Below the pieces are notes generated by a model, which worked only from the letters and a program-made list of their open reading frames with translations, had not been told where the DNA came from and ran no database searches. Below, piece after piece: positions 1 through 13,002 of a stretch of 42,930 nucleotides of DNA. The DNA is from a virus. The position numbers and the translations under genes are program-made. Within the stretch, counting starts at the first letter, position 1; each line of letters begins with the position of its first letter. The stretch is from UHGV virus genome UHGV-1283594, one strand, 5' to 3'.

Positions 1-28
1 TAAATCAGTAGAATAAAAATCATGCATA

Positions 29-37
29 TGTTATAAT
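29..37 (+). promoter_or_regulatory. Extended -10 promoter element (TGtTATAAT) upstream of the small ORF at 85-171
   Basis: TGnTATAAT motif at 29-37. An AAGGAAAGGGGG Shine-Dalgarno follows at 65-78, then an ATG at 85. Confidence 0.3.
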
Positions 38-84
38 GTCTAGGTTACCGCCCCTATACCCGGTAAGGAAAGGGGGTGTCTGAC

Positions 85-171
85 ATGGAAAATCTTATTT
101 CTTTTATTGTCGCTGTTGCGGCTGGTGTAGTTTGCCACTACATCATCAAATGGTTGGACGGCGGCAAATAG
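85..171 (+). CDS. 28-aa hydrophobic peptide (MENLISFIVAVAAGVVCHYIIKWLDGGK). Single TM helix with a basic C-terminus, resembling a type I toxin or small membrane peptide.
   Basis: Good RBS 7 nt upstream of the ATG. One predicted TM segment. Followed by a strong rho-independent terminator. Confidence 0.3.
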   Translation: MENLISFIVAVAAGVVCHYIIKWLDGGK

Positions 172-215
172 TCGGTAACCAGCCTGCAGATGCCTAACTG
201 CTTAAAAAGGAAGAA

Positions 216-256
216 AGCCCCTGAGTCTCGACCACTCAGGGGCTTTCGCTTTTGTG
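216..256 (+). terminator. Rho-independent terminator
   Basis: Perfect inverted repeat AGCCCCTGAGT ... ACTCAGGGGCT with a 7-nt loop, followed by TTTCGCTTTTG. Confidence 0.6.
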
Positions 257-349
257 TCCAACATGGAAACTTATTTCTTTTTGCCTAACGGCATTATAGC
301 ATATGCAGAAAATCTTTTCAAGATACCATTTGTAAGAGAAAAAATCCCT

Positions 350-376
350 TGACTTTTGCCCGACATAATATATAAT
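350..376 (+). promoter_or_regulatory. Sigma-A-type promoter (TTGACT, 15-16 nt spacer, TATAAT) for the RHH/antirepressor pair
   Basis: TTGACT at 350-355 and TATAAT at 371-376. Placed about 30 nt upstream of the RBS of the 409-573 ORF. Confidence 0.4.
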
Positions 377-408
377 AAATTTATGCCCGACAAAAGTGAG
401 GTAAGAAT

Positions 409-573
409 ATGAGTCCAAGGACAGGCAGACCAACGGATAATCCCAGACCGAATAAATTGAGTATTCGCATAAGTAATGAGGATAAAGAAATATTGGAAAA
501 ATATTGTGAAGAAGAAGGTGTGAACAGAACAGAGGCAATAAGTCGAGGGATTAAGAAGTTAGTAGAAAAATAA
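409..573 (+). CDS. Ribbon-helix-helix (CopG/Arc/MetJ-like) small DNA-binding protein, 54 aa. Likely regulator of the downstream antirepressor-like gene.
   Basis: MSPRTGRPTDNPRPNKLSIRISNEDKEILEKYCEEEGVNRTEAISRGIKKLVEK. The GRP...KLSIRIS(beta)-helix-helix pattern is typical of RHH proteins. Strong SD (AAGTGAGGTAA). Not in the supplied ORF track because it is under 60 aa. Confidence 0.55.
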   Translation: MSPRTGRPTDNPRPNKLSIRISNEDKEILEKYCEEEGVNRTEAISRGIKKLVEK

Positions 574-574
574 A

Positions 575-614
575 ACAGTCGTAGCACCGACCAAAGCACA
601 CACGACTGTTTTGG
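575..614 (+). terminator. Rho-independent terminator
   Basis: AACAGTCGT ... ACGACTGTT stem (9 bp) followed by TTGGG. Confidence 0.45.
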
Positions 615-692
615 GTAGAAGTTTCCTTCTGTAAATATTATAATGCAGCAGGAAACTTCTTTCAAGAACTAAAATTTGAAAGGAGTTTTATC

Positions 693-1250
693 ATGCAGTT
701 ACCGCAGACAGTAGAAGTAAAAGAAATTAGAGTTTTAACCAGTAAACAAATTGCTGAAGAATATGGAACTACTCCAGGTGTGATAAAAAAGAATTTCTCT
801 AATAATAGAGAACGCTTTGTTGAAGGAAAACATTACATATCACTTACAGGTGATGAGTTGAGAGCTTTCAAGAACCAGGTGAATAATGTTCACCTGGTCG
901 CAAATAGGACATCTCACCTATACCTCTGGACTGAAAAAGGAGCTCTTCTTCATGCTAAGTCCTTAAACACGGACAAAGCATGGGAAGTATATGATTACCT
1001 GGTTGATTTTTATTTTCGGGCCAAGGAAAAACGACCAGAGAAAAAGGAAATAGTACCGGTTCCAGCAAAAACGGTAGAACAGGTTAAGGAAGGGTATGAT
1101 ATAGCACCTTTGTTTCGAGAGGTTTTGGAAATGCTCCCTTTAGAGGCTTTAGATGAAATGGAAAAAGCATTTCGAATAGGCCATAGTAAAGCAATAAAAA
1201 AAGCAGCAACCAGTGTGTTAGCCGAAAAAATGAAAAGACAATTAATGTAA
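693..1250 (+). CDS. ORF6N-domain protein (phage antirepressor-associated N-terminal domain) with a basic C-terminal region
   Basis: The N-terminal approximately 110 aa (EIRVLTSKQIAEEYGTTPGVIKKNFSNNRERFVEGKHYISLTGDELRAFK ... KGALLHAKSLNTDKAWEVYDYLVDFYF) match the ORF6N fold pattern as I recall it. RBS AAAGGAG. Confidence 0.55.
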   Translation: MQLPQTVEVKEIRVLTSKQIAEEYGTTPGVIKKNFSNNRERFVEGKHYISLTGDELRAFKNQVNNVHLVANRTSHLYLWTEKGALLHAKSLNTDKAWEVYDYLVDFYFRAKEKRPEKKEIVPVPAKTVEQVKEGYDIAPLFREVLEMLPLEALDEMEKAFRIGHSKAIKKAATSVLAEKMKRQLM

Positions 1251-1290
1251 GTTTTTGGGGCGTCCTTCATATAGAGGGGCGCTCTTTTAA

Positions 1291-1304
1291 TTGTGACGTC
1301 GCAA
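1291..1304. repeat. Copy A of the 14-bp palindrome TTG(T/C)GACGTCGCAA (13/14 match), immediately upstream of the endolysin RBS
   Basis: TTGTGACGTCGCAA. The other copies are at 27883-27896 and 42917-42930. Flanks are also similar (TAATTGYGACGTCGCAAWWGRAAGRA). Confidence 0.7.
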
Positions 1305-1319
1305 TAGAAAGGAAATGCT

Positions 1320-2087
1320 ATGAAAATATCAGATAATGGATTAAATCTCATAAAAAAATTTGAAGGCTGTCGACTAACGGCTTATCAGGATACCGTAGGT
1401 GTCTGGACCATCGGATACGGCACCACAAACGCAGACAAAGCAATCACCGGAACAACAATCTGCCAAGGTCTGCGGATCAGCCAGGAAACGGCAGATGAAT
1501 GGTTGCGCCAGTCTGTTGATAAAAAGTATGGTCCAAAAGTGGACAAGTATAGTGCTTACAACTGGACGCAGCCAGAGTTTGATGCCTTGGTATCTTTTGC
1601 GTATAACATCGGAAGTATTGACGGATTGACGGCTAAAGGTACTCGTACCCGTTCTGAGATAGCAGCCAAAATCCTGGAGTATAATAAAGCTGGCGGAAAG
1701 GTATTATCTGGCCTCATCCGCAGACGTCAGGAAGAGAGGAAGCTCTTTTTAACTCCCGTTACAGTAAAAACAGGTTGGCAGCAGGAAAATGGAGGCCGGC
1801 GCTTCTATTTAAAAGACGGCTCAGGAAAATATGTTTCTAATGACTGGCACAAGGATGGAGAACTCTGGTATTGGTTCAACGGTGCCGGCATGATGGTCCA
1901 TGACACCTGGTACCAGTACAAAGGGTCTTGGTATTACCTTGGATCTGATGGTGCTATGCTTAAAGGCCTGCAGACGATTAACGGCAAGTGGTACTACCTG
2001 GATCAAGACGGCCGCATGGCAACGGATCCGGTAACATTGACACCGGATCAGGACGGCGCCTTACAGTATCCAGGCCTTGTAAAATAG
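1320..2087 (+). CDS. Endolysin: GH24 (T4/lambda-R-like) lysozyme domain plus C-terminal cell-wall-binding repeats (CW_binding_1/choline-binding-like)
   Basis: N-terminus LIKKFEGCRLTAYQDTVGVWTIGYGTT is the classic phage lysozyme catalytic E-x8-D/C-x5-T motif region. C-terminus carries tandem GWQQENGGRRFYLKDGSGKY / GSWYYLGSDGAMLKG / GKWYYLDQDGRMA repeats. Confidence 0.85.
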   Translation: MKISDNGLNLIKKFEGCRLTAYQDTVGVWTIGYGTTNADKAITGTTICQGLRISQETADEWLRQSVDKKYGPKVDKYSAYNWTQPEFDALVSFAYNIGSIDGLTAKGTRTRSEIAAKILEYNKAGGKVLSGLIRRRQEERKLFLTPVTVKTGWQQENGGRRFYLKDGSGKYVSNDWHKDGELWYWFNGAGMMVHDTWYQYKGSWYYLGSDGAMLKGLQTINGKWYYLDQDGRMATDPVTLTPDQDGALQYPGLVK

Positions 2088-2235
2088 AAAATCACACATC
2101 TGATCATCGGTTATATCTTGCCAAATTTCAACACCTGATTTATGATGAAAATATAGAAAAATTCTGCCAAAATCTAAGGAAAAATCCCCTATACGCACTT
2201 ACAATCTGGTCATCCAAATTGCTAGTACGTATAGA

Positions 2236-2272
2236 TGCCAGCAAACCCGCATAAATCAAGGGTTTGCTGGCA
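2236..2272. terminator. Bidirectional hairpin between the convergent endolysin and integrase genes
   Basis: Perfect 13-bp inverted repeat TGCCAGCAAACCC / GGGTTTGCTGGCA with an 11-nt loop. It overlaps the last codons of the integrase. Confidence 0.5.
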
Positions 2273-3782
2273 TTTCTGGATTTTCAGCTAAATAAAAATC
2301 TACGTCAATGTGACTGTTAGCCCGGTCGTAGGTGATCTTCTCTACAATGCTTTTTAGGGCTGCATTTTTCTCCTGGGGAGTGAAAGCGTCAGACTGCAGG
2401 ATGTCCAAGATAGAGGAGATGCTCTGCAGCATTTTCCGGGTATTATCTTCCGGGTTTTCTGGCTTTCTGGTAAGTTTCTCCAGCTGTTCTTCCAGTTCTG
2501 TTCGTTCCTGGTTGATACGTTCTTTGTTAGCCCGGTATTCTTCTATAGTGTCAATTCCATCTATGTAAGCTTCTTTTGCACGAAGTTCCTTTGAGTCCAG
2601 TCGGGACAATTTTTTTTCAATATTTTTAATTTCAGCATCCGGTGCATGGTCTGTCTGACGCTGGCGCAGGGAGTAAGAAACGGATCCGTTGTTAAGGGCA
2701 TCCTTAAGAGCGTTTAAAACAGCAGGGCCGATCACACTTTCATTGACATAGCAGTTAGTGGAACATTTGCCTTTTAAGTATCCGTAGCACTGGAAATAGA
2801 AAGTATCCGGTAGTGACTTTCTGTGGACTACACAGGAAGAAAGGGAACGGCCACAGCCGGAGCATTTTAAAAGTCCTGAAAGCCAGTGTTTAGTTACTTC
2901 TGAAGGCTTGGCATTTCTGGGTGTGTATTCCTTGTTAAAGCGCTCCTGGGCCTGCTCGAAGAGTTCCTTGCTGATAATAGCCGGGTGGTGACCGGGACGG
3001 ATGATCCACTCAGAACGGTCACGTATTTCATTGGTTTCGTTTATGGTTCGGTTCCAGCGGATATCTCCTGCATAGCCGGGATTTTGGATAATGTATTCCA
3101 GGGAACGCTTTTCAAAGGGCTTTCCACGGCTGGTTTTGTATCCCTGGGCATTCAGGTATTTGGTTAGAGCAAATAAGGACATCTTTTCATTTACATATTT
3201 ATCGAAAATCAGCTGAACGATAGCGGCTTCTTCTGGAATAATCTCAGGAGTGGCTTTGTGGTGTGGGATGCGGTATCCCAGAGGCGGTCTGCACTGGTAG
3301 GCGCCACGCAGGGCATTCTCTGTCATTCCCCTGGTAACATCACCGGAAAGCCGGATAGAGTAAAATTCGTCCATCCATTCAATGATGCGCTCGATCAGGC
3401 CACCGAAAGGGCCTTCGATCAGCGGCTCGGAGATACTGACTACATCCACATGGCATTTATTCCGCAGCATGGACTTGTAAACAATGCTTTCTTCCTGGTT
3501 GCGGGCGAACCTGGAAAACTTCCATAGCAGGATCACATCAAAGGGATGCTCATCAGACTTGGCGGCAGCGATCATCTGCTGGAACTTTGGCCGCTTATCT
3601 GCTTTCCGGCCGGAAATACCATTTTCTGTATAGATGTGTTGGTTGGACACAATCATATTGTGGCTTTTGGCATAGTCTAAGAGCAGACGTCTCTGGGAGT
3701 CCGGGGACAGTTCTTCCTGTTTATCGGTGCTGACGCGGATGTAGAGTGCAGCTGTTTTTACAGTGTCTTCTTCTTTTTTCAT
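2256..3782 (-). CDS. Large serine recombinase (phage integrase, resolvase/invertase-type N-terminal catalytic domain + recombinase domain + zinc ribbon/coiled coil)
   Basis: The true start is MKKEEDTVKTAALYIRVSTDKQ (catalytic Ser in RVST). The track ORF carries a 57-aa upstream extension with no RBS. Recombinase domain with YQCRPPLGY. Cys cluster CSGCGRSLSSC...C...C, then a coiled-coil C-terminus. Confidence 0.9.
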   Translation of the reverse strand: MKKEEDTVKTAALYIRVSTDKQEELSPDSQRRLLLDYAKSHNMIVSNQHIYTENGISGRKADKRPKFQQMIAAAKSDEHPFDVILLWKFSRFARNQEESIVYKSMLRNKCHVDVVSISEPLIEGPFGGLIERIIEWMDEFYSIRLSGDVTRGMTENALRGAYQCRPPLGYRIPHHKATPEIIPEEAAIVQLIFDKYVNEKMSLFALTKYLNAQGYKTSRGKPFEKRSLEYIIQNPGYAGDIRWNRTINETNEIRDRSEWIIRPGHHPAIISKELFEQAQERFNKEYTPRNAKPSEVTKHWLSGLLKCSGCGRSLSSCVVHRKSLPDTFYFQCYGYLKGKCSTNCYVNESVIGPAVLNALKDALNNGSVSYSLRQRQTDHAPDAEIKNIEKKLSRLDSKELRAKEAYIDGIDTIEEYRANKERINQERTELEEQLEKLTRKPENPEDNTRKMLQSISSILDILQSDAFTPQEKNAALKSIVEKITYDRANSHIDVDFYLAENPEMPANP

Positions 3783-3967
3783 GTTATCATCTCCTGGTAT
3801 TTGCTTTATTTTATGAAAAATGGGTACAAAAAAGACGCCCCTTGCGCAGACGTCCTGGAGATGATATAATTCAGGTGCATAAGTTGGATTATATCTGGCC
3901 AGAAGACTGGCAGGAGAAAATCTATGTAAGAGGCCGTTCAGTGCTGGTAACACTGAGCGGTCTTTTA

Positions 3968-4969
3968 CTATTTATGTTCTTCTGGAAGAACTGGTAATAT
4001 ATCCAATTCTTCAGAATGTGACTCTAAGGCTTTTCTGTGATAATCAAAGATTTCATATTGTTCTTTAGCAAAACGATCAGCATCTTCTCTGGAAATGTGT
4101 CCATTGTTATCTAACACTTTACGTCCAGTAAACTGTAAGAAAGCGTTTAAGCGATTTTCCCAGTCACTCATATACATAGGAATGCGCTGTTTTGCTTGAT
4201 CCTCGGCATAATCTAAATACATTGTGACAATACGGTTTAAATTTTCAATCTCATCTTTGTGAAGATAATTTTTTGCAATTGTAACATCGGATTTTCTGAC
4301 TTTTGCTCCTTTGAAAGAAGTTAATCCCATATTATCCTTAGTAGCATCTGCGCGTTCATGAATTAATTCAGGCGCAGTATGGCCGTGAACGGAGTAATGT
4401 AGCTTATTTTGAACAGTTTTGAAAAATCTATCTGCCTGCTCACTTTTGGGATCATAATCTACTGATGTAGCAAAAATATCACGAACTTTCATGTACACAC
4501 GTTTTTCAGATGCTCTAATGTCACGAATACGCTCAAGTAATTCATCAAAATAATCCTGGCCAAATTTTTTTGGATTTTTAAGGCGCTCATCATTAAGCGC
4601 AAATCCCTTTCGCATATATTCTGAGAGTATAGAGGATGCCCAGTTCCGGAAATGAATGCCAATATTGCTCCGCACTCTATAACCAACAGCAAGTACCATA
4701 TCAAGATTGTAATAATCCATTTCACGAGATACTTGTCGGCTACCCTCTGTTTGAACTGTTCGGAATTTCCGAACAGTTGAATTTTCATCAAGTTCTCGGT
4801 CAAGGTAGATATTTTTAATATGCTCACTGACTGATGATTTTGAAATTTGATAGAGTTCACTTATAGAGCGCTGGGTCATCCAGATAGTGTCATCATTAAA
4901 GTAAGCATCAACTTTTGTATCACCTTTTTCATTTTGATATATTAAAATATTTCCAATATTTGTATCCAT
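3968..4969 (-). CDS. RhuM-family (virulence protein RhuM / Fic-DOC-associated N-domain) protein, 333 aa
   Basis: N-terminus ILIYQNEKGDTKVDAYFNDDTIWMTQRSISELYQISKSSVSEHIKNIY...YYNLDMVLAVGYRVRSNIGIHFRNWASSILSEYMRKGFALNDERLK matches the RhuM pattern I recall (IVIYQTEDG..V..E.TVWLTQ..M..LF......I.KHI.NIF...YNLDVIISVGYRVKS..G.QFR.WAT..L.EY..KGF..DDERLK). Confidence 0.7.
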   Translation of the reverse strand: MDTNIGNILIYQNEKGDTKVDAYFNDDTIWMTQRSISELYQISKSSVSEHIKNIYLDRELDENSTVRKFRTVQTEGSRQVSREMDYYNLDMVLAVGYRVRSNIGIHFRNWASSILSEYMRKGFALNDERLKNPKKFGQDYFDELLERIRDIRASEKRVYMKVRDIFATSVDYDPKSEQADRFFKTVQNKLHYSVHGHTAPELIHERADATKDNMGLTSFKGAKVRKSDVTIAKNYLHKDEIENLNRIVTMYLDYAEDQAKQRIPMYMSDWENRLNAFLQFTGRKVLDNNGHISREDADRFAKEQYEIFDYHRKALESHSEELDILPVLPEEHK

Positions 4970-5065
4970 AGGCTCCTTTCTTAACCGTATGAAAATCTAG
5001 ATGGTTAGTTCTGAAGTGTTTCCAAACCGGAAATAGTTCAGCGTATAAATGTAAGAGAAAATCTA

Positions 5066-5938
5066 TTAACCAATTAGTGGTTCAATAGTTGTAGATGAAG
5101 GTTCCATGGGTGGGATTTTTATATTAGATATGAGTAACTCTTCGGCGTTTCTTGAGGTATGTACGGAGTAGTCCATATGTATGGTTAATGGAGACAATTG
5201 TTTGTACATTTTCCGAATTTCTTCAGCATTATCATAACTAATCAGCCATGGGTAGGTTTTGGATAGGATAAATTTAGATAAAAGCATATGTTGCTCATGT
5301 GTATAATAGCATCTATACAAATTAGCTCCTTCTTTATAGTATGGAGGGTCTATGTATACAAAAGTTTTTCTGTTCCGTTTATATCGTAGTGCTTGCTTCA
5401 TAAAGTCAATAGCGTCTAAATTGTAAAGAGTTATTTTATTTCCATATAGCGAAAGCTGTTGAATGGAATTAATAATCTTATCTTTATTAAATCGACAATT
5501 AATAGGGTATTGAGATTGCTGATTTAGCCCACCGAGTGGATTGGCCTTTAGTATGCCAGAGAAGTTAGTTCTATTTAAAAATAAACCAGCAAAACCTATT
5601 TGAACAGATGTTTTGTCTTGAAGATAATCATTATTTCTATAAAGAGAAAACTCATGCCAATTTTCTAATGTAATATCAGTGTTTCTAATAAGCGTAATCA
5701 GTTCTTCAGTGTGATTAAACACAGAGAACCAAAAGTTATAAAGCAAGGGATCAAGTTCATTAAGAACAGCCTTGCTGATAACTTGGTTTTCCAAAAGTAG
5801 CAATGATATGGCAGCACTGCCAGCGAATGGTTCGTAAAAAGTGCATCCGGTTCGCTGCTCTGCAATAAGTAATTTGCATATATAATCATATAACTTAGAT
5901 TTAGCACCAGGATAGCGTAAGGGATTTTTTATCGACAT
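5066..5938 (-). CDS. Dam-family (D12 class) DNA N6-adenine methyltransferase, 290 aa
   Basis: LRYPGAKSKL (Dam KWAGGKYPL), FYEPFAGSAAISL (AdoMet motif I, Dam VEPFVGAGSVFL), LFLNRTNFSGI (Dam LFLYLNRYGYNG), FVYIDPPYY (catalytic DPPY motif IV). Strong RBS AAAGGAGGTGAG. The gene is very AT-rich. Confidence 0.85.
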   Translation of the reverse strand: MSIKNPLRYPGAKSKLYDYICKLLIAEQRTGCTFYEPFAGSAAISLLLLENQVISKAVLNELDPLLYNFWFSVFNHTEELITLIRNTDITLENWHEFSLYRNNDYLQDKTSVQIGFAGLFLNRTNFSGILKANPLGGLNQQSQYPINCRFNKDKIINSIQQLSLYGNKITLYNLDAIDFMKQALRYKRNRKTFVYIDPPYYKEGANLYRCYYTHEQHMLLSKFILSKTYPWLISYDNAEEIRKMYKQLSPLTIHMDYSVHTSRNAEELLISNIKIPPMEPSSTTIEPLIG

Positions 5939-5991
5939 TTAATCTCACCTCCTTTAGTCAGCTTATCATATTTATAGATATTTGGCCAGAA

Positions 5992-7605
5992 CTAATTGAT
6001 TTTAGGTATTTTGGTTCTGGAAGCTAAAATATTAAATCGATTAACAAATGTTTTTTTGAATGTATCAAGATCTGTTTGGTTATCTTCACACCAATATCGC
6101 ATAATATTTAGATCATCAAACATAGCTTGATTATCTATGAACCAGTGCTTGTATTTCTCACGATTTTTTTCATATGAAGCATATTTGGGTGAAGTCAGAG
6201 GATTCATTTCTTTAAACATTCTAATGGATATACCTTTGTCGAAATTTTCCTGTAAGATTTCGTGAGTTGGAGGGAGATTGATTAAATAATTGTATAGTAA
6301 TGCTTCTGGTCCTTCGTTACCAGGTAAGAAAATAACATTACAATGTTTAGCAGGTAATTCGGCGTATTTGGTTTTTGCTAAATCTTTATCTCCGTCTAAT
6401 ATAAATAGAACATTTTTAAAGTAATCAGGGTCATTATATAAAAGATTCATAAGAGATTCTCCACCTAATTTAATGTCTAAAAGGCGAAAATGATCCTTAT
6501 AGTCAGCGAGCATATGTCTTATGAAATATCGTGCTTCAGCGTCTTCTGAATAAATATTTATCTTTCGATTATTACTGGTCAAATAATAGGTACTAATCAT
6601 CATATCATTCTCCATTGCTTCAAAAGGCGGGTTGTGATGAATTTCAAGCTTACCATTGGCTGTTGTAAAATATTCAATATTGATATCGGAATTTCTTATT
6701 TGCAGGCTGCTTAAATATTCCAAAATTTGCAGTGAGTGTGTAGTAAATACGGCTTGAAAATTGAATTGTTTACATACTTTATAAATTAAGTCAATAAGAC
6801 GAATTTGGGCTGCTGGGTGTAATGTTGCATCTAATTCATCAATAAGTAAAATACCACCGGGCCAAGGTTCTCCTATATTATCATATTCTGTTTTAAGTTT
6901 AATAAATGATAATAATAAATACATAATTTGCATTAAATTGTCTTGTCCGGAAGAATTACTTAAAAAGTCATAATGGGAAGTATTTACTCCACCAGAACGC
7001 TTTTTGAAAATTTCATAGTTTGATATACTAGAAATAGAATCGTCTATGGAAAGAATATACTTGTAGTTTTTGATTAGCCATTGGATATCATCATTTGTTA
7101 ATTTCTTCTTAAATTTTCGTTCCTCAATAACTTCTGAAGTATCTTCACCAAGTGGATACAAGCGACTTAATCCTAAATAAAAAGAAGGAACAGATAACTT
7201 TTTAGCAGTTACTTTTTCACTTATGGAGTGATCAACCCATTTTGGAAGAATTCTAAAACGGTTACTATCAACAGAATCCTTATCCCATTTTTGCCAAGTG
7301 ACACGTAAAGTAATAGGAATCTCGTTATCATTATCTTGTGGGAGGTAAAAAAGAGTACCGATATCTCCACTTCGTTTGTCAAAAGCTTTTGAACCCTTGA
7401 ATAGTTCAGAAAATTCAGTTTTAAATTGTTTATCAGTAATAGTTGTTCCGAATTTACTCTTAAGTTCACAGGTATTTCCAAGAATTCCTAAAATTGTAGA
7501 CTTTCCAGTGGCATTATGTCCAGCTATAGCGGTAATAGTATTCCCTATATGAATAGTTTGATCCTTAAAAATTCTAAAATCTTCTAAATATAGACGAGTA
7601 AACAT
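5992..7605 (-). CDS. ABC-type ATPase fused to a C-terminal Toprim-like (DUF4435/OLD-family-like) domain: putative ATP-dependent nuclease, 537 aa
   Basis: Walker A GHNATGKST. ABC signature-like SSGQDNL. Walker B ILLIDELDATLH. H-loop FTTHS. C-terminal NIYSEDAEARYF (conserved Glu of Toprim), FILDGDKD (DxD) and IFLPGNEGPE. Architecture matches OLD/GajA-type proteins. RBS AAGGAG. AT-rich. Confidence 0.6.
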   Translation of the reverse strand: MFTRLYLEDFRIFKDQTIHIGNTITAIAGHNATGKSTILGILGNTCELKSKFGTTITDKQFKTEFSELFKGSKAFDKRSGDIGTLFYLPQDNDNEIPITLRVTWQKWDKDSVDSNRFRILPKWVDHSISEKVTAKKLSVPSFYLGLSRLYPLGEDTSEVIEERKFKKKLTNDDIQWLIKNYKYILSIDDSISSISNYEIFKKRSGGVNTSHYDFLSNSSGQDNLMQIMYLLLSFIKLKTEYDNIGEPWPGGILLIDELDATLHPAAQIRLIDLIYKVCKQFNFQAVFTTHSLQILEYLSSLQIRNSDINIEYFTTANGKLEIHHNPPFEAMENDMMISTYYLTSNNRKINIYSEDAEARYFIRHMLADYKDHFRLLDIKLGGESLMNLLYNDPDYFKNVLFILDGDKDLAKTKYAELPAKHCNVIFLPGNEGPEALLYNYLINLPPTHEILQENFDKGISIRMFKEMNPLTSPKYASYEKNREKYKHWFIDNQAMFDDLNIMRYWCEDNQTDLDTFKKTFVNRFNILASRTKIPKIN

Positions 7606-7634: not shown

Positions 7635-8078
7635 TTATTTCAGCCTTAATTCAAGCAATTCCTTAGGATATCCTGTGCATTGACAGAACTGGTCCTGAGT
7701 GTATACAGTATAATCTTGCAACATTTCATCTGATATCAAAAGGGAAGCGGCAAACAAATTTGCTTCTCTTTCTATTCCAGATGTAAGCAGTAATGTTTTA
7801 TTTTTTAGAAAAGCACAATTCTCTTTTCTATGTAGTAAAGCATGACCTAATTCGTGTGCTACAACAACCCGAAAAAGTGAACTGTCAGATGGAATATCCT
7901 CATTTATAAAAATCCAACGTTTTCTTTTTAGAAGTTTGTAGTTTCCAGAAATATTGCCTAACGGTAATACTGCGATCTGGATCCCGGCGTACCGTGCAAT
8001 AGTAACAGGATCCCGGCTGCCGGTTAGATGTTCATAGTACCTGATTAAACGACGAATCTTATGATTTACAGTCTCCAA
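7635..8078 (-). CDS. ImmA/IrrE-family zinc metallopeptidase (repressor-cleaving antirepressor protease)
   Basis: HEXXH motif VVAHELGHALLH, size 147 aa. Lies immediately downstream of and co-oriented with the XRE repressor (ImmR/ImmA arrangement). Confidence 0.8.
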   Translation of the reverse strand: METVNHKIRRLIRYYEHLTGSRDPVTIARYAGIQIAVLPLGNISGNYKLLKRKRWIFINEDIPSDSSLFRVVVAHELGHALLHRKENCAFLKNKTLLLTSGIEREANLFAASLLISDEMLQDYTVYTQDQFCQCTGYPKELLELRLK

Positions 8079-8088
8079 ACGGCGTCAC

Positions 8089-8505
8089 CTACTTTTTATT
8101 CTTATTTGGATTGTATTTCACTTTGTTTTCTTTTTTAGTTTCTCTAAGGGCGTATTCAATGGCATTCTGAAGTAGGCTTAGGGAAGCATTATCAATTTCT
8201 ACGCCATTGTAGTATAGAGGACCGTCATCACCTTTACGAATTTCACCCATAATACGGTCTAAATCCTTTTTTATATCTCGTTCATCTCTGGCATTGAGTT
8301 CCGTGTGCTCTTCGCTATCGCCATTAAGTAGATAATCCATTGTAACATTAAAGTATTTAGCAACAGCATTTAACTTATCAGCATTAGGAGTGGATTTATC
8401 CCATTTTACGATTGTACTATTGCCAAAACCCAACTCTGACTCAAGCGCAGGTAAACTAATACCACGTTCTTGCGCAAGGGCTTTTACTCGGTCTTTGAGT
8501 GTCAT
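8089..8505 (-). CDS. XRE-family HTH repressor (cI-like lysogeny repressor, ImmR-like)
   Basis: N-terminal HTH (LAQERGISLPALESELGFGNSTIVKWDKS) plus C-terminal dimerization region. Divergent from the cro-like gene. An operator-rich intergenic region lies upstream. Confidence 0.85.
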   Translation of the reverse strand: MTLKDRVKALAQERGISLPALESELGFGNSTIVKWDKSTPNADKLNAVAKYFNVTMDYLLNGDSEEHTELNARDERDIKKDLDRIMGEIRKGDDGPLYYNGVEIDNASLSLLQNAIEYALRETKKENKVKYNPNKNKK

Positions 8506-10386: not shown

Positions 10387-10583
10387 TGGCTGTGCGGGAA
10401 GACCAGTGCGGTACCTGCATCAGGAAGAACCGGTGCATGGGGAGAAGTCGCTTACAGGCATGCAGAGGCTACATAAAAAAGGACCCAGGCAGCGGCAACT
10501 GCGGAAGGTCCGGTAAGAAAAATAAATCACACCCTCATTATACGGAGGGAGAAGGAGAAATGCAAGATGGCAATGAAAATTAA
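10383..10583 (+). CDS. Cys-rich small protein (66 aa), translationally coupled (GTGATG overlaps the upstream TGA)
   Basis: CGTC...C...C...C spacing suggests metal binding. No independent RBS. Overlaps the start of the ATPase gene. Confidence 0.25.
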   Translation: MMAVREDQCGTCIRKNRCMGRSRLQACRGYIKKDPGSGNCGRSGKKNKSHPHYTEGEGEMQDGNEN

Positions 10584-11832
10584 CAAGCTTGAGATTGAGA
10601 ACGTCAAGCGTGTAAAGGCAGTAAAGATCGAACCGACAGCAAATGGGCTTACGATCATTGGTGGAAACAACAACCAGGGCAAGACCTCTGTCCTGGATGC
10701 GATCGCCTGGGCTTTAGGCGGGGACAAATACCGTCCGTCCCAGGCTCAGAGGGAAGGCTCCGTGATCCCACCAAACCTTCATATAGTCATGAGCAATGGT
10801 CTGGTAGTGGAACGCAAGGGTAAGAACAGCACGTTAAAGGTAACAGATCCACAGGGACAGAAGGCCGGGCAGCAGCTTTTGAATGAGTTTGTGGAACAGC
10901 TGGCACTGGACCTTCCGAAATTTATGGAGGCTTCTGACAAGGAAAAGGCAGGTATCCTGTTAAACATCATCGGTGTAGGAGACCAGCTGGCCCAGTTGGA
11001 AAAGGAAGAAAAGGAACTTTACAGTGAGCGTACCTATGTGGGGCGCACGGCAGACCAGAAAGAGAAGTATGCAAAAGAACAGCCTTATTATCCGGATGTC
11101 CCGACAGTCCCAGTCTCAGCAGCGGAACTGATCCGCAAACAGCAAGAGATCCTGGCACAGAACGGGGAAAACCAGAGAAAGCGTGAAAGACGCCACCAGC
11201 TGGAGCAGGAGATGCAGCGTGTCACGGATCAGATCCAGGAGCTTTTAAGGAAGCAGGCAGAGCTGGAAGCGGATCTTAAGATCGCCCGGTCGACCAGTGA
11301 GAACCTGCAGGATGAGTCTACCGCAGAACTGGAACGAAACATTGCAGAAGTGGAAGAGACCAACCGGAAAGTACGGGCCAACCTGGACAAAGACAAGGCA
11401 GAAGAAGATGCCAGGGGATACCGGGAACAGTACAATGCACTGACCGGAAAGATCCAGGAGGTACGGGATAAAAAGCTGGAACTGTTAAAGAAAGCAGATC
11501 TGCCGCTTCCAGGACTGACGGTTGAGGATGGGGAACTGGTCTACAATGGTCAGAAATGGGACAACATGTCCGGATCCGAACAGCTTAAGGTATCTACCGC
11601 GATCGTACGCCGGTTAAATCCGAACTGTGGCTTTGTGCTCATGGACAAACTGGAACAGATGGACCTGCATACCCTTCAGGAGTTTGGAAAGTGGCTGGAG
11701 GCAGAAGGTCTCCAGGCGATCGCTACCAGGGTATCTACGGGGGACGAGTGCAGCATTATCATCGAAGACGGGTATGTGGTAGGACAACCGCACACCGAAG
11801 AAAAGAAAGAATGGAAAGCAGGTGTTTTTTAA
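10567..11832 (+). CDS. SMC/RecF/SbcC-like AAA ATPase with a central coiled coil (phage recombination/repair ATPase)
   Basis: Walker A GGNNNQGKTS. Long coiled-coil middle. C-terminal signature SGSEQ and Walker B FVLMDKLEQMD. Confidence 0.75.
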   Translation: MAMKINKLEIENVKRVKAVKIEPTANGLTIIGGNNNQGKTSVLDAIAWALGGDKYRPSQAQREGSVIPPNLHIVMSNGLVVERKGKNSTLKVTDPQGQKAGQQLLNEFVEQLALDLPKFMEASDKEKAGILLNIIGVGDQLAQLEKEEKELYSERTYVGRTADQKEKYAKEQPYYPDVPTVPVSAAELIRKQQEILAQNGENQRKRERRHQLEQEMQRVTDQIQELLRKQAELEADLKIARSTSENLQDESTAELERNIAEVEETNRKVRANLDKDKAEEDARGYREQYNALTGKIQEVRDKKLELLKKADLPLPGLTVEDGELVYNGQKWDNMSGSEQLKVSTAIVRRLNPNCGFVLMDKLEQMDLHTLQEFGKWLEAEGLQAIATRVSTGDECSIIIEDGYVVGQPHTEEKKEWKAGVF

Positions 11833-13002
11833 ATGGAGATCATCAGAGGAAAACAGCCGGGAGCAAAGAAGACCGTGATCTACGGTCCGGAAGGGATCGG
11901 GAAGTCTACACTGGCTTCCTGCTTCCCGGATCCGCTGTTCATTGATACAGAAGGTTCCACCAGGGATATGGATATCGCGCGTACCAAAGAGCCAAGCAGC
12001 TGGATGATGCTCATGGAGCAGGTCATGTATGTAAAGAACCATCCGGATATCTGCAAGACCCTGGTCATTGATACGGCGGACTGGGCTGAGATGCTCTGCA
12101 TTTCCCAGATATGTGATAAGAACCACAAGAGCAGCATTGAGGAGTTTGGATATGGAAAAGGGTATACCTATGTCCAGGAAGAGTTCGGACGCCTTTTAAA
12201 CCTGCTCACGGAAGTGGTCAAGGCAGGCGTGAACGTGGTCCTTACAGCCCATGCAAAGATGCGCAAGTTTGAACAGCCGGATGAGCTGGGAGCTTATGAC
12301 CGCTGGGAGATGAAGCTGAGTAAAGGCGTAGCGCCCATGGTAAAAGAGTGGGCAGACATGGTACTGTTTGCGAATTATAAGACCATGGTGGTGAACGTGG
12401 ACGGCCAGGGAGCCCAGAAGGGGAAAAACAAAGCTCAGGGCGGAAAACGTGTCATGTATACCACCCACCACAGCTGCTGGGACGCAAAGAACCGCTACAG
12501 CCTTCCGGATGAAGTGCCTTTTACATATGAGAGCATCCGGCAGATCCTGGAACCGGGAACAGCCCCGGCAGAGGAGAAGCAGGAGGTAAAACAGCCAGAC
12601 CCTGTACAGGAAACACCACAAGCACCACCTGTCAGACCGGCAGAAACGGTAAAACATCCGGAGACAGCTAGTAGTAACAAGGGCAATGAAAAACCTGCAG
12701 AAGAAAAGAAAGGCATTGCGCCTGTGGAGGGCAGCAAAGGGGATGTAAAGCCGGATGGAAGATCGGCACTGGATCCACGTCTCCCCAAGAGACTGCGGGA
12801 CCTGATGATCGCCAATGATGTGTGCGAATGGGATATACAGAACGTATGTGAAGCCAAGGGATATGTACCGGTGGATACGCCTCTTTACATGTATGAAGAG
12901 GTCAATCCGGGCTTTGTGGACGGCGTTCTGGTAGGTGCCTGGGACCAGGTGTATGCGGCGATCAGGGAAATGAAAGAAAAGGATTCTTTAGTATTTAATT
13001 AA
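11833..13002 (+). CDS. RecA-like NTPase (AAA_24 family phage ATPase) with a Pro/Glu-rich linker and C-terminal domain
   Basis: Walker A IYGPEGIGKST. Walker B LVIDTADW. Position between the SMC-like ATPase and the DUF669-like/helicase genes is canonical. Confidence 0.75.
   Translation: MEIIRGKQPGAKKTVIYGPEGIGKSTLASCFPDPLFIDTEGSTRDMDIARTKEPSSWMMLMEQVMYVKNHPDICKTLVIDTADWAEMLCISQICDKNHKSSIEEFGYGKGYTYVQEEFGRLLNLLTEVVKAGVNVVLTAHAKMRKFEQPDELGAYDRWEMKLSKGVAPMVKEWADMVLFANYKTMVVNVDGQGAQKGKNKAQGGKRVMYTTHHSCWDAKNRYSLPDEVPFTYESIRQILEPGTAPAEEKQEVKQPDPVQETPQAPPVRPAETVKHPETASSNKGNEKPAEEKKGIAPVEGSKGDVKPDGRSALDPRLPKRLRDLMIANDVCEWDIQNVCEAKGYVPVDTPLYMYEEVNPGFVDGVLVGAWDQVYAAIREMKEKDSLVFN

Follow-up and report, generated by a model that had tools for sequence, protein, structure and literature searches.

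Organization of the locus

The virus genome UHGV-1283594 was analysed as a single stretch of 42,930 nucleotides (nt), hereafter the window, to whose whole length all coordinates refer; labels such as L227 denote sampled loci or contigs that were compared with it. The subject of this report is a pair of adjacent genes on its minus strand, which encode an ABC ATPase fused to a Toprim-like domain (537 amino acids (aa), 5992-7605) and an alpha-class DNA methyltransferase (MTase) of the D12/Dam fold (290 aa, 5066-5938), followed on the same strand by the gene of a RhuM-family protein (333 aa, 3968-4969). A preliminary description of the window had named these three genes and placed them in the lysogeny operon, and their identities, orientation and exact coordinates all stood. 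Our favoured reading, held with moderate confidence, is that the ATPase, as the putative effector nuclease, and the MTase form a compact two-gene, ATP-dependent defence cassette that would resemble restriction-modification (R-M) systems and that resides in the operon of the repressor and ImmA.

The leftward lysogeny operon opens with a prophage repressor of the XRE/CI helix-turn-helix (HTH) type (8089-8505, minus strand; Pfam HTH_19, 7.1e-08), in a gene order that is repeated in the prophage variants, and continues with the repressor's partner, an ImmA/IrrE-type M78 metallopeptidase (7635-8078, minus strand; Pfam Peptidase_M78, 2.4e-14). The gaps separating the five operon genes measure 10, 29, 53 and 96 nt. 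A good Shine-Dalgarno sequence precedes the start of the ATPase gene and that of the MTase gene, and no terminator-like site was predicted on the minus strand from 8505 to 3968. The operon probably ends at a hairpin with an 18-bp stem that lies directly past the RhuM stop codon (3926-3968), together with a predicted terminator-like site on the minus strand (3856-3832), which stands between RhuM and the start of the integrase, a large serine recombinase with Resolvase, Recombinase and Zn_ribbon_recom domains (508 aa, 2256-3782, minus strand). The integrase starts at 3782 and not at 3953, with a verified start codon and 508-aa calls in ten variant loci, so that the 565-aa open reading frame (ORF) listed mechanically for it is an over-extension; both the hairpin and the terminator-like site fall within this longest ORF, in the window segment 3782-3968. 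That the genes lie in this operon on the strand of the repressor, with no terminator in between, suggests that they are expressed in lysogens, where the ATPase and the MTase are probably made.

The foreign, AT-rich composition that had been ascribed to this segment is borne out by the numbers. The GC content is 0.310 for the ATPase gene, 0.337 for that of the MTase and 0.354 for that of RhuM, versus 0.437 for the whole window; positions 5066-7605 together have a value of 0.319, which equals the lowest-GC intervals of 2.5 kb (minimum 0.318; mean 0.438, standard deviation 0.048), and the flanking host chromosome is at about 0.445. The ATPase-MTase pair is also AT-richer than its flanks in 61 of 65 loci.

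The ATPase and its Toprim-like domain

The ABC ATPase head occupies residues 1-325 (6631-7605, minus strand), is matched by the Pfam families AAA_15, AAA_21 and SMC_N, and contains a Walker A motif GHNATGKST (K35), the signature SSGQ (S218-Q221), a Walker B motif ending in D256-E257 and an H-loop histidine (H290). Residue conservation was counted over 68 paired ATPase-MTase homologues, among which K35, S218, G220, D256, E257 and H290 are invariant, with Q221 being a glutamine in 66.

Residues 348-445 (6271-6564, minus strand) make up the Toprim-like core, with a β-α-β-α-β-α-β order. The motifs that define Toprim domains, as given by Schiltz et al., are a glutamate after β1, a glycine after β2 and a DxD after β3. 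According to the structural model of the protein, E354 (codon 6544-6546) follows β1, the conserved G381 follows β2, D404-G-D406 (6388-6396) follows β3, and E434 (6304-6306) heads the helix after β4. The acidic residues E354, D355, D404, D406 and E434 are invariant in the 68 homologues, E357 is kept in 59 and K486 in 65; taken together, D355, E434, E357 and K486 are reminiscent of the ligands of the second metal and of the lysine in BpOLD. A helical bundle closes the protein (residues 446-537; 5995-6270, minus strand), whose last 24 residues, DTFKKTFVNRFNILASRTKIPKIN, include the invariant F516 and F520. The features of the OLD family, an ABC ATPase with Walker A, signature, Walker B and H-loop joined to a domain with Toprim topology and motifs, are therefore present.

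Direct searches with the C-terminal region were negative. The last 218 aa scanned alone found nothing significant in Pfam, Toprim and DUF4435 included (best E 0.12), and had no match in PADLOC; the hidden Markov model (HMM) profile of the domain gave irrelevant matches against all PDB sequences (best E 0.77), and the C-terminal profile, when aligned by hhalign to the single sequence of P2 Old, gave no match (0.2%). Foldseek searches of the PDB with this domain reached a best E of 0.1, with a weak match to a 306-residue chain of the PARIS complex, which we take to be AriB.

The relationship that did emerge is with HEC-04. This is the best PADLOC family match of the ATPase (E 1.5e-20), although it covers model positions 233-406 of 494, about one third of the model. 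When the profile of the family was aligned with hhalign to a HEC-04-like protein from an enterobacterial plasmid, which itself matches HEC-04 at 3.9e-32, the result was 98.8% (E 1.2e-16, 357 columns, about 23% identity), spanning residues 4-413 of the query and 11-388 of the plasmid protein and pairing IYSEDAEAR with VFVEDELAR and FILDGD with CVLDGD. In HEC-04, whose domain has been superposed on BpOLD, the triple mutant E319A/D375A/D377A loses defence; by position and spacing, E319, D375 and D377 would be the positions matched here. The topology, the conserved residues and this profile homology make it probable that the C-terminal domain is a Toprim-like nuclease domain of the HEC-04 type. 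The fusion of an ABC ATPase to a Toprim-like C-terminus, as initially described, is thus supported by topology, motifs and HEC-04 homology, though by no match of the domain alone to Pfam Toprim, DUF4435 or PADLOC, whereas the architecture described as OLD/Gabija GajA-like has to be corrected, the protein being nearer to HEC-04 and IbfA than to GajA. It is a distant relative of HEC-04, OLD and GajA and a member of none of them. The family of the C-terminal domain comprises 793 clusters at 50% identity with E <= 1e-3 (500 with E <= 1e-10) among 1.84 billion representatives, and the proteins, about 530 aa long, always have it at their C-terminal end.

The methyltransferase and its relatives

The MTase matches the D12 family of Pfam (PF02086, 1.8e-21) and, in PADLOC, PD-Lambda-5_B over nearly the whole protein (4.7e-92; residues 3-276 versus model positions 4-274 of 291), as well as the MTase_II model (3e-78). 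Its motif I for S-adenosylmethionine (SAM) binding, EPFAGSAA, is encoded at 5810-5833 and its catalytic DPPY at 5339-5350, the latter being invariant in the 68 homologues; with a motif I and a (D/N/S)PP(Y/F) motif both present, the enzyme looks active. The preliminary description had called it a Dam-family N6-adenine MTase, of which the D12 fold holds, while the rest is a family label: the TIGR dam model is matched below its cutoff (74.9 versus 114.85 bits), and among solved relatives M.CbeI (7M6B, E 4.7e-15) comes closest, before DpnM (2.3e-8). M.CbeI is an alpha-class N4-cytosine MTase with a Dam-like fold and a DPPY motif. Avoidance of GATC was considered as a clue to specificity and dropped as uninformative, since under a maximal-order Markov model this word is over-represented in the whole window (313 observed versus 236 expected); the words under-represented there include CTAG (20 versus 50) and CGCG (19 versus 41).

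In a reciprocal sample, which took in the 80 viral-contig relatives nearest to the MTase, 25 adjoin the ATPase family and about 31 adjoin PD-λ-5_A, two loci having both effectors; three more adjoin another candidate ATPase family, PDC-M38A, and the remainder nothing recognisable. With several partner families in this sample, the MTase appears as a hub that pairs with alternative effectors, and the locus of the window is a sister architecture of PD-λ-5.

Pairing across genomes and viruses

Two samples centred on the ATPase, 80 genome loci (one genome per species) and 59 loci in viral contigs, establish how regularly the two genes go together. An MTase homologue stands beside the ATPase on the same strand in 74 of the genome loci: 71 pairs are adjacent, 48 in the order ATPase-MTase and 23 in the reverse order, and in three the genes are split by an inserted gene. 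Of those genome loci that lack an MTase, six in all, four run into a contig end, L064 is a remnant with both genes degraded, and L053 is a contig of 2.5 kb. The viral contigs give the same picture, with 53 paired loci (50 adjacent, three separated) and six without an MTase, all six cut at the contig end. In at least one of the separated cases, L097 (whose contig is also that of L201), the gene in between is a homologue of PD-λ-5_A. Many phyla are represented among the genome loci (Bacillota, Fusobacteriota, Actinomycetota, Elusimicrobia, Melainabacteria, Campylobacterota, Alphaproteobacteria, Planctomycetota and Bacteroidota, with others), and a clade with 27% identity likewise keeps the MTase beside the ATPase. 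Moreover, pairwise distances of the two proteins are correlated (r = 0.78; Mantel 0/999).

Family clustering within ±6 kb revealed no conserved third gene, the next commonest family occurring in 10 loci. The 82 immediate neighbours include six PD-λ-5_A proteins, three restriction endonucleases (REases) of the AlwI family, 12 integrases or recombinases and a few parts of type I R-M systems, the remaining ones being unrelated. On these grounds a hidden third gene, either an REase or a helicase, was rejected. The AlwI REase was also dismissed as a part of the module, as it lies beside three pairs and belongs to its own complete system.

The adjacency of both genes could in principle arise where a phage's orphan MTase and a separate single-gene defence of the OLD-like type share a hotspot, and the interval between repressor and integrase is indeed a known site for cargo, where an unrelated RhuM gene is present too. 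However, the above frequencies of pairing, with either gene order and in unrelated surroundings, the correlated divergence and the lack of any other gene conserved nearby make such a coincidence extremely improbable, and the counts together with the co-evolution effectively refute it. The ATPase-MTase pairing, first noticed at one locus and conceivably fortuitous there, is real and near-obligate, and the pair is well supported as a widespread two-gene module, probably self-contained and horizontally mobile.

RhuM, by comparison, is a separate co-transcribed cargo and not a conserved partner. The protein of the window is a clear family member (PF13310, 2.2e-117; PADLOC candidate PDC-S05, 7e-146), but RhuM genes occur near the pair in two of the 80 genome loci and, as one partial match, among the 59 viral loci, so that the island of three genes does not stand as a unit. 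The accompanying remark that RhuM genes recur near R-M loci was right: they are enriched beside type I R-M loci, with an odds ratio of 14.4 (PMC9881135).

Other defence genes accompany the pair in some genomes. PD-λ-5_A, the ParB/HEPN protein, is found upstream of the pair in L024, L029 and L042, downstream and convergent in L045 and L046, and between both genes in L201; this co-presence with the ATPase and the MTase implies that one MTase may serve two effectors. Three loci (L008, L011 and L016, about positions 1000-5100) carry a complete AlwI-type Type IIS system immediately upstream of an MTase-ATPase pair, with two extra D12-class MTases and the AlwI-family REase, that is, stacked defence systems with a common MTase fold.

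Natural variants of the prophage

Contigs with an identical ImmA or MTase represent natural variants of the same prophage, most of which carry an intact cassette. Often it is the ATPase alone that has been destroyed. L227 has an out-of-frame deletion of 730 bp within the ATPase gene (window 7317-6588) and an intact MTase. L232, L240 and L245 have the ATPase gene interrupted at window 7099-7117 by a Tn916-like element of about 6.5 kb, and the MTase is intact where visible. This element (L232 9144-15266, L240 1-2092, L245 1-816; 19-bp overlap at the junction) encodes a tyrosine integrase, Xis, Rep_trans, an HTH regulator, DHFR_1, Polyketide_cyc2 and TfoX_N, and its dihydrofolate reductase (DHFR) gene suggests a possible cargo of trimethoprim resistance. 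Loss of the MTase was seen among the prophage variants solely together with that of the last 24 codons of the ATPase, by a deletion of 992 bp in L228 (window 6065-5074) that removes nearly the whole MTase gene as well. Two decayed genome loci, L060 and L064, have both genes broken.

Counted by contigs, the exact intact ATPase is accompanied by an intact MTase in all contexts (22 contigs), while about six of the 23 contigs with the exact MTase have an ATPase broken by the 730-bp deletion, a mobile-element insertion or truncation (Fisher one-sided p = 0.012, for lineages that are not independent). Read from sequence, such one-sided loss looks like the pattern predicted by an R-M or a toxin-antitoxin relationship.

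The variants also bear on a reading in which the ATPase would be no nuclease but an ATP-dependent loader, activator or regulator of the MTase, comparable to MtsA in MANTIS, and the pair would serve to protect phage DNA as an epigenetic or anti-restriction device. MANTIS provides the precedent that an ATPase can be required for methylation, and the absence of significant HMM or Foldseek nuclease matches for the C-terminal domain fits this idea. It is nevertheless quite improbable, given that the five acidic residues are invariant at canonical Toprim positions and that the protein is homologous to HEC-04-type proteins, whose mutants in equivalent residues lose defence. Besides, the MTase is kept in lineages in which the ATPase has been destroyed and has relatives that occur without an ATPase, and for these reasons it appears to be independent of the latter.

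Host and genomic setting

Identical proteins are present in Clostridium sp. AM22-11AC and in metagenome-assembled genomes of gut 'Clostridium sp.', where the prophage sits inside chromosomal contigs of 200-635 kb; the identical ImmA is indexed in 3471 blocks of an assembly collection. A megablast search of GenBank phages with 24 kb of this phage returned no match. Streptococcus phage phiGBSVK-D shows the same layout, repressor/ImmA - ATPase - MTase - integrase, and so do prophages of Romboutsia, Vallitalea, Selenomonas and Enterococcus (L057, L065, L080 and L067, respectively). Three further loci (L083, L088 and L107) have the pair between repressor/ImmA and integrase, and many IMG/VR contigs share this arrangement. 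Other positions occur as well: a P2-like Vibrio phage has the pair right after its repressor, with the two genes convergent, and in Citrobacter phage phiNP it comes after the integrase and its MTase carries no annotation. The MTase homologue of phiNP (OR565852.1, about 43926-44723; L082 4769-5566; 38% identity over residues 1-269) lies directly downstream of an 'AAA family ATPase', at a place for which the feature table holds no coding sequence.

The prophage lineage itself is variable around this region. The identical repressor and ImmA are joined in L226, L227, L228 and L229 (positions 1-5600) to at least four replication/recombination modules, represented by a DUF927 primase, by RecT/YqaJ, by PriCT_2 with a DEAD helicase and AAA_24 (the type of the window), and by DnaB_C/ERCC4; one immunity region with such differing modules indicates strong modular mosaicism within a single lineage. 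The corresponding module of the window (10567-13002) encodes a second ATPase of the SMC_N/AAA_23 type (421 aa) and then an AAA_24 protein (389 aa), and the same two genes occur in L228 and L230; both belong to the phage replication/recombination module and lie outside the defence cassette. In one chromosomal setting, seen in L236 (20-1531) and L246 (1-2698), a Mob_Pre relaxase and a second serine recombinase (503 aa) stand directly upstream of the ATPase. Their replacement of repressor and ImmA suggests that another element inserted or recombined at that junction.

Relation to known systems

Among the closest known systems is PD-λ-5 (Vassallo et al. 2022, PMC9519451), an experimentally validated Escherichia coli prophage defence in which an MTase accompanies a ParB/HEPN protein. 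Its authors interpreted this system as a compacted 'RM+Abi', and its cloning required a host from which mrr had been deleted (PMC9519451); from this need we take its MTase to be active. Both systems are two-gene, prophage-borne cassettes of a methylase and an effector, and the MTase of the window falls in PD-Lambda-5_B. The effectors, however, are dissimilar, a ParB/HEPN protein there and an ABC ATPase-Toprim-like protein here; PD-Lambda-5_A is not among the PADLOC matches listed for the five window proteins (the best 25 in the case of the ATPase and of RhuM).

HEC-04 and IbfA share with the present ATPase the association of an ABC ATPase with a C-terminal Toprim, a common motif style (xED...LDGD) and homology across both domains. 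Those proteins, in contrast, act as single genes, whereas this family is almost never found without an MTase. A HEC-04-like gene on the E. coli plasmid p42-2 (L145) has no MTase adjoining it. The 293-aa gene beside it (L145 3015-3893) was considered as an MTase and rejected; it encodes a cysteine-rich 'hypothetical protein' with a stretch RNNLQH (Rx4H-like), is convergent with the HEC-04-like ATPase and might be either its partner or unrelated.

Other OLD-type systems were compared as well. As to the nucleases of the OLD family (P2 Old, BpOLD, TsOLD; GajA of Gabija), the C-terminal domain has no significant sequence or profile match to OLD, GajA or Toprim models. Gabija differs by its UvrD-type helicase partner GajB, where an MTase is the partner here, and the GajA HMMs match the ATPase motif segments only, with no helicase family conserved beside the pair. 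Retron-linked OLD proteins differ by the retron, which is absent here. PARIS and AbiL resemble the module in having an OLD-type ABC ATPase and a Toprim-like effector and in being often phage-borne, but they are split into two proteins and have no MTase, as opposed to a single fused protein with one; the AriA and AbiLi HMMs match the ATPase part only, and there is no match to DUF4435 or AriB. Gabija, PARIS, Septu/PtuA, retron I-B, MADS mad3 and Menshen NsnB were all rejected as identities of the system, their matches being to shared ATPase motifs only.

Type II R-M systems offer the likeness of a standalone alpha-class MTase beside a putative endonuclease, in mobile and AT-rich loci with one-sided loss, and the difference that the endonuclease would here be ATP-dependent and Toprim-based; PADLOC contains no REase family that matches the C-terminal domain, and none appears in the best 25 of the 113 matches of the full protein. 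The PrrC-EcoprrI and rloA/rloB arrangements are older precedents of ABC-ATPase effectors physically tied to R-M loci. MANTIS/Gao_RL and Hma are methylation-based defences involving ATPases too, yet they comprise three or four genes, with AAA+ or helicase parts and separate nucleases, in an architecture that is not homologous. Identity with MANTIS/Gao_RL was discarded because of its four genes and AAA+ ATPase, and identity with WonAB because the latter combines an OLD-ABC ATPase with a PD-(D/E)xK nuclease and has no methylase.

The pair of a D12-fold MTase and a fused ABC ATPase-Toprim protein is undescribed in the literature searched, and an earlier in-silico mention elsewhere is possible. All its parts come from known families and its logic is known, while the pair itself is uncharacterised in that literature. 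The preliminary description, which did not recognise a characterised system, overlooked the membership of the MTase in the MTase family of PD-λ-5, a validated system, and hence the existence of a sister architecture.

Proposed mechanism

The R-M-like mechanism that we favour would work as follows. The MTase, with its intact SAM-binding and DPPY motifs, would mark the DNA of the host and of the prophage. The ATPase, of the OLD/HEC-04 type and with the full metal-binding acidic set retained in its Toprim-like domain, would use the binding and hydrolysis of ATP to engage DNA and to nick or cleave it where unmarked, as in the case of incoming phage DNA. We infer from sequence the nuclease activity, the DNA substrate, the sensitivity of cleavage to methylation and the anti-phage function. 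What leads to this reading is the combination of pairing, co-evolution, invariant catalytic residues, the lack of a third gene, one-sided loss, the joint decay of both genes in two loci, an MTase of the PD-Lambda-5_B family and mobility. The R-M logic of the preliminary description is in this way favoured by the comparative evidence, next to an abortive-infection reading that is weighed below.

Several observations weigh against it. The loss asymmetry depends on few independent events. A variant without MTase (P0122) encodes an ATPase of 514 aa that is identical through residue 513 and keeps every catalytic motif, and its presence on 209 contigs, versus 521 for the intact protein, marks a successful lineage; if this shortened ATPase is active, the MTase is unnecessary for self-protection. 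Its inactivation is plausible, since the lost segment is modelled with confidence as a terminal helix that bears the invariant F516 and F520. PD-λ-5 protects against T-even phages, which are noted as intrinsically resistant to most R-M systems (PMC9519451). The nearest characterised relatives of the ATPase, HEC-04 and IbfA, work alone, and IbfA is described as acting by abortive infection (PMC12111858). Finally, PARIS cleaves tRNA through AriB after sensing Ocr, a precedent by which Toprim effectors can be RNases, the DNA substrate in the present case being putative.

Some of these facts point to a methylation-linked module of abortive infection or guarding, in which the ATPase-Toprim protein would be a sensor of infection and a suicidal nuclease, as in HEC-04/IbfA or PARIS. 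The trigger would be a phage factor, for instance an anti-restriction protein, the MTase would either shield the chromosome against collateral cleavage or be the guarded component, and protection would result from the death or arrest of the infected cell and not from restricting unmethylated DNA on entry. The profile homology to HEC-04-like proteins speaks for it, together with the abortive action of IbfA and the finding of HEC-04 embedded in methylase-containing Hma systems, where it is toxic when induced (Payne et al. 2024 preprint). The comparative-genomics literature likewise sees OLD-ABC/Toprim modules as backup suicidal effectors of R-M-like systems, PD-λ-5 bears the label 'RM+Abi', the ATPase lies beside or inside a complete PD-λ-5 in six genome loci, and the 514-aa variant without MTase is common. 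Against this, about 85% of the loci have no other nuclease that would need a backup, and if the methylation state made no difference to the effector, it would be difficult to account for a near-obligate coupling to an MTase, which is unseen for plasmid HEC-04-like proteins; one-sided loss, too, fits a nuclease restrained by methylation. We therefore deem this alternative rather unlikely, although it is the most serious one.

A broader proposal, which we put forward tentatively and with somewhat less confidence than the R-M-like cassette itself, is that the pair may represent a new class of ATP-dependent R-M systems, with an OLD/HEC-04-type ATPase-Toprim protein as the restriction endonuclease, inside a 'methylase hub' design. 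By this design one MTase family would gate interchangeable effectors, ParB/HEPN proteins in PD-λ-5, the ATPase-Toprim protein here, and sometimes both.

Significance

Annotation based on PADLOC probably leaves the pair unlabelled, since none of the three proteins has a full-length match that completes a named system; at NCBI the proteins go under 'AAA family ATPase', 'ATP-dependent nuclease' and 'DNA adenine methylase'. For the dependency between the ATPase and the MTase, the deletions and insertions found in nature and described above are ready genotypes.

Prophages often have the module in their immunity region, among them streptococcal prophages and a Clostridium prophage that is very prevalent in the human gut. 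If the R-M-like reading is true, it would add a compact two-gene architecture to R-M and a new class of partner to the OLD nuclease family, and it would help to explain PD-λ-5, which has the same MTase family. If the pair does constitute a new R-M class, the OLD family, so far regarded as self-contained or abortive-infection nucleases, would become linked to epigenetic discrimination between self and non-self.

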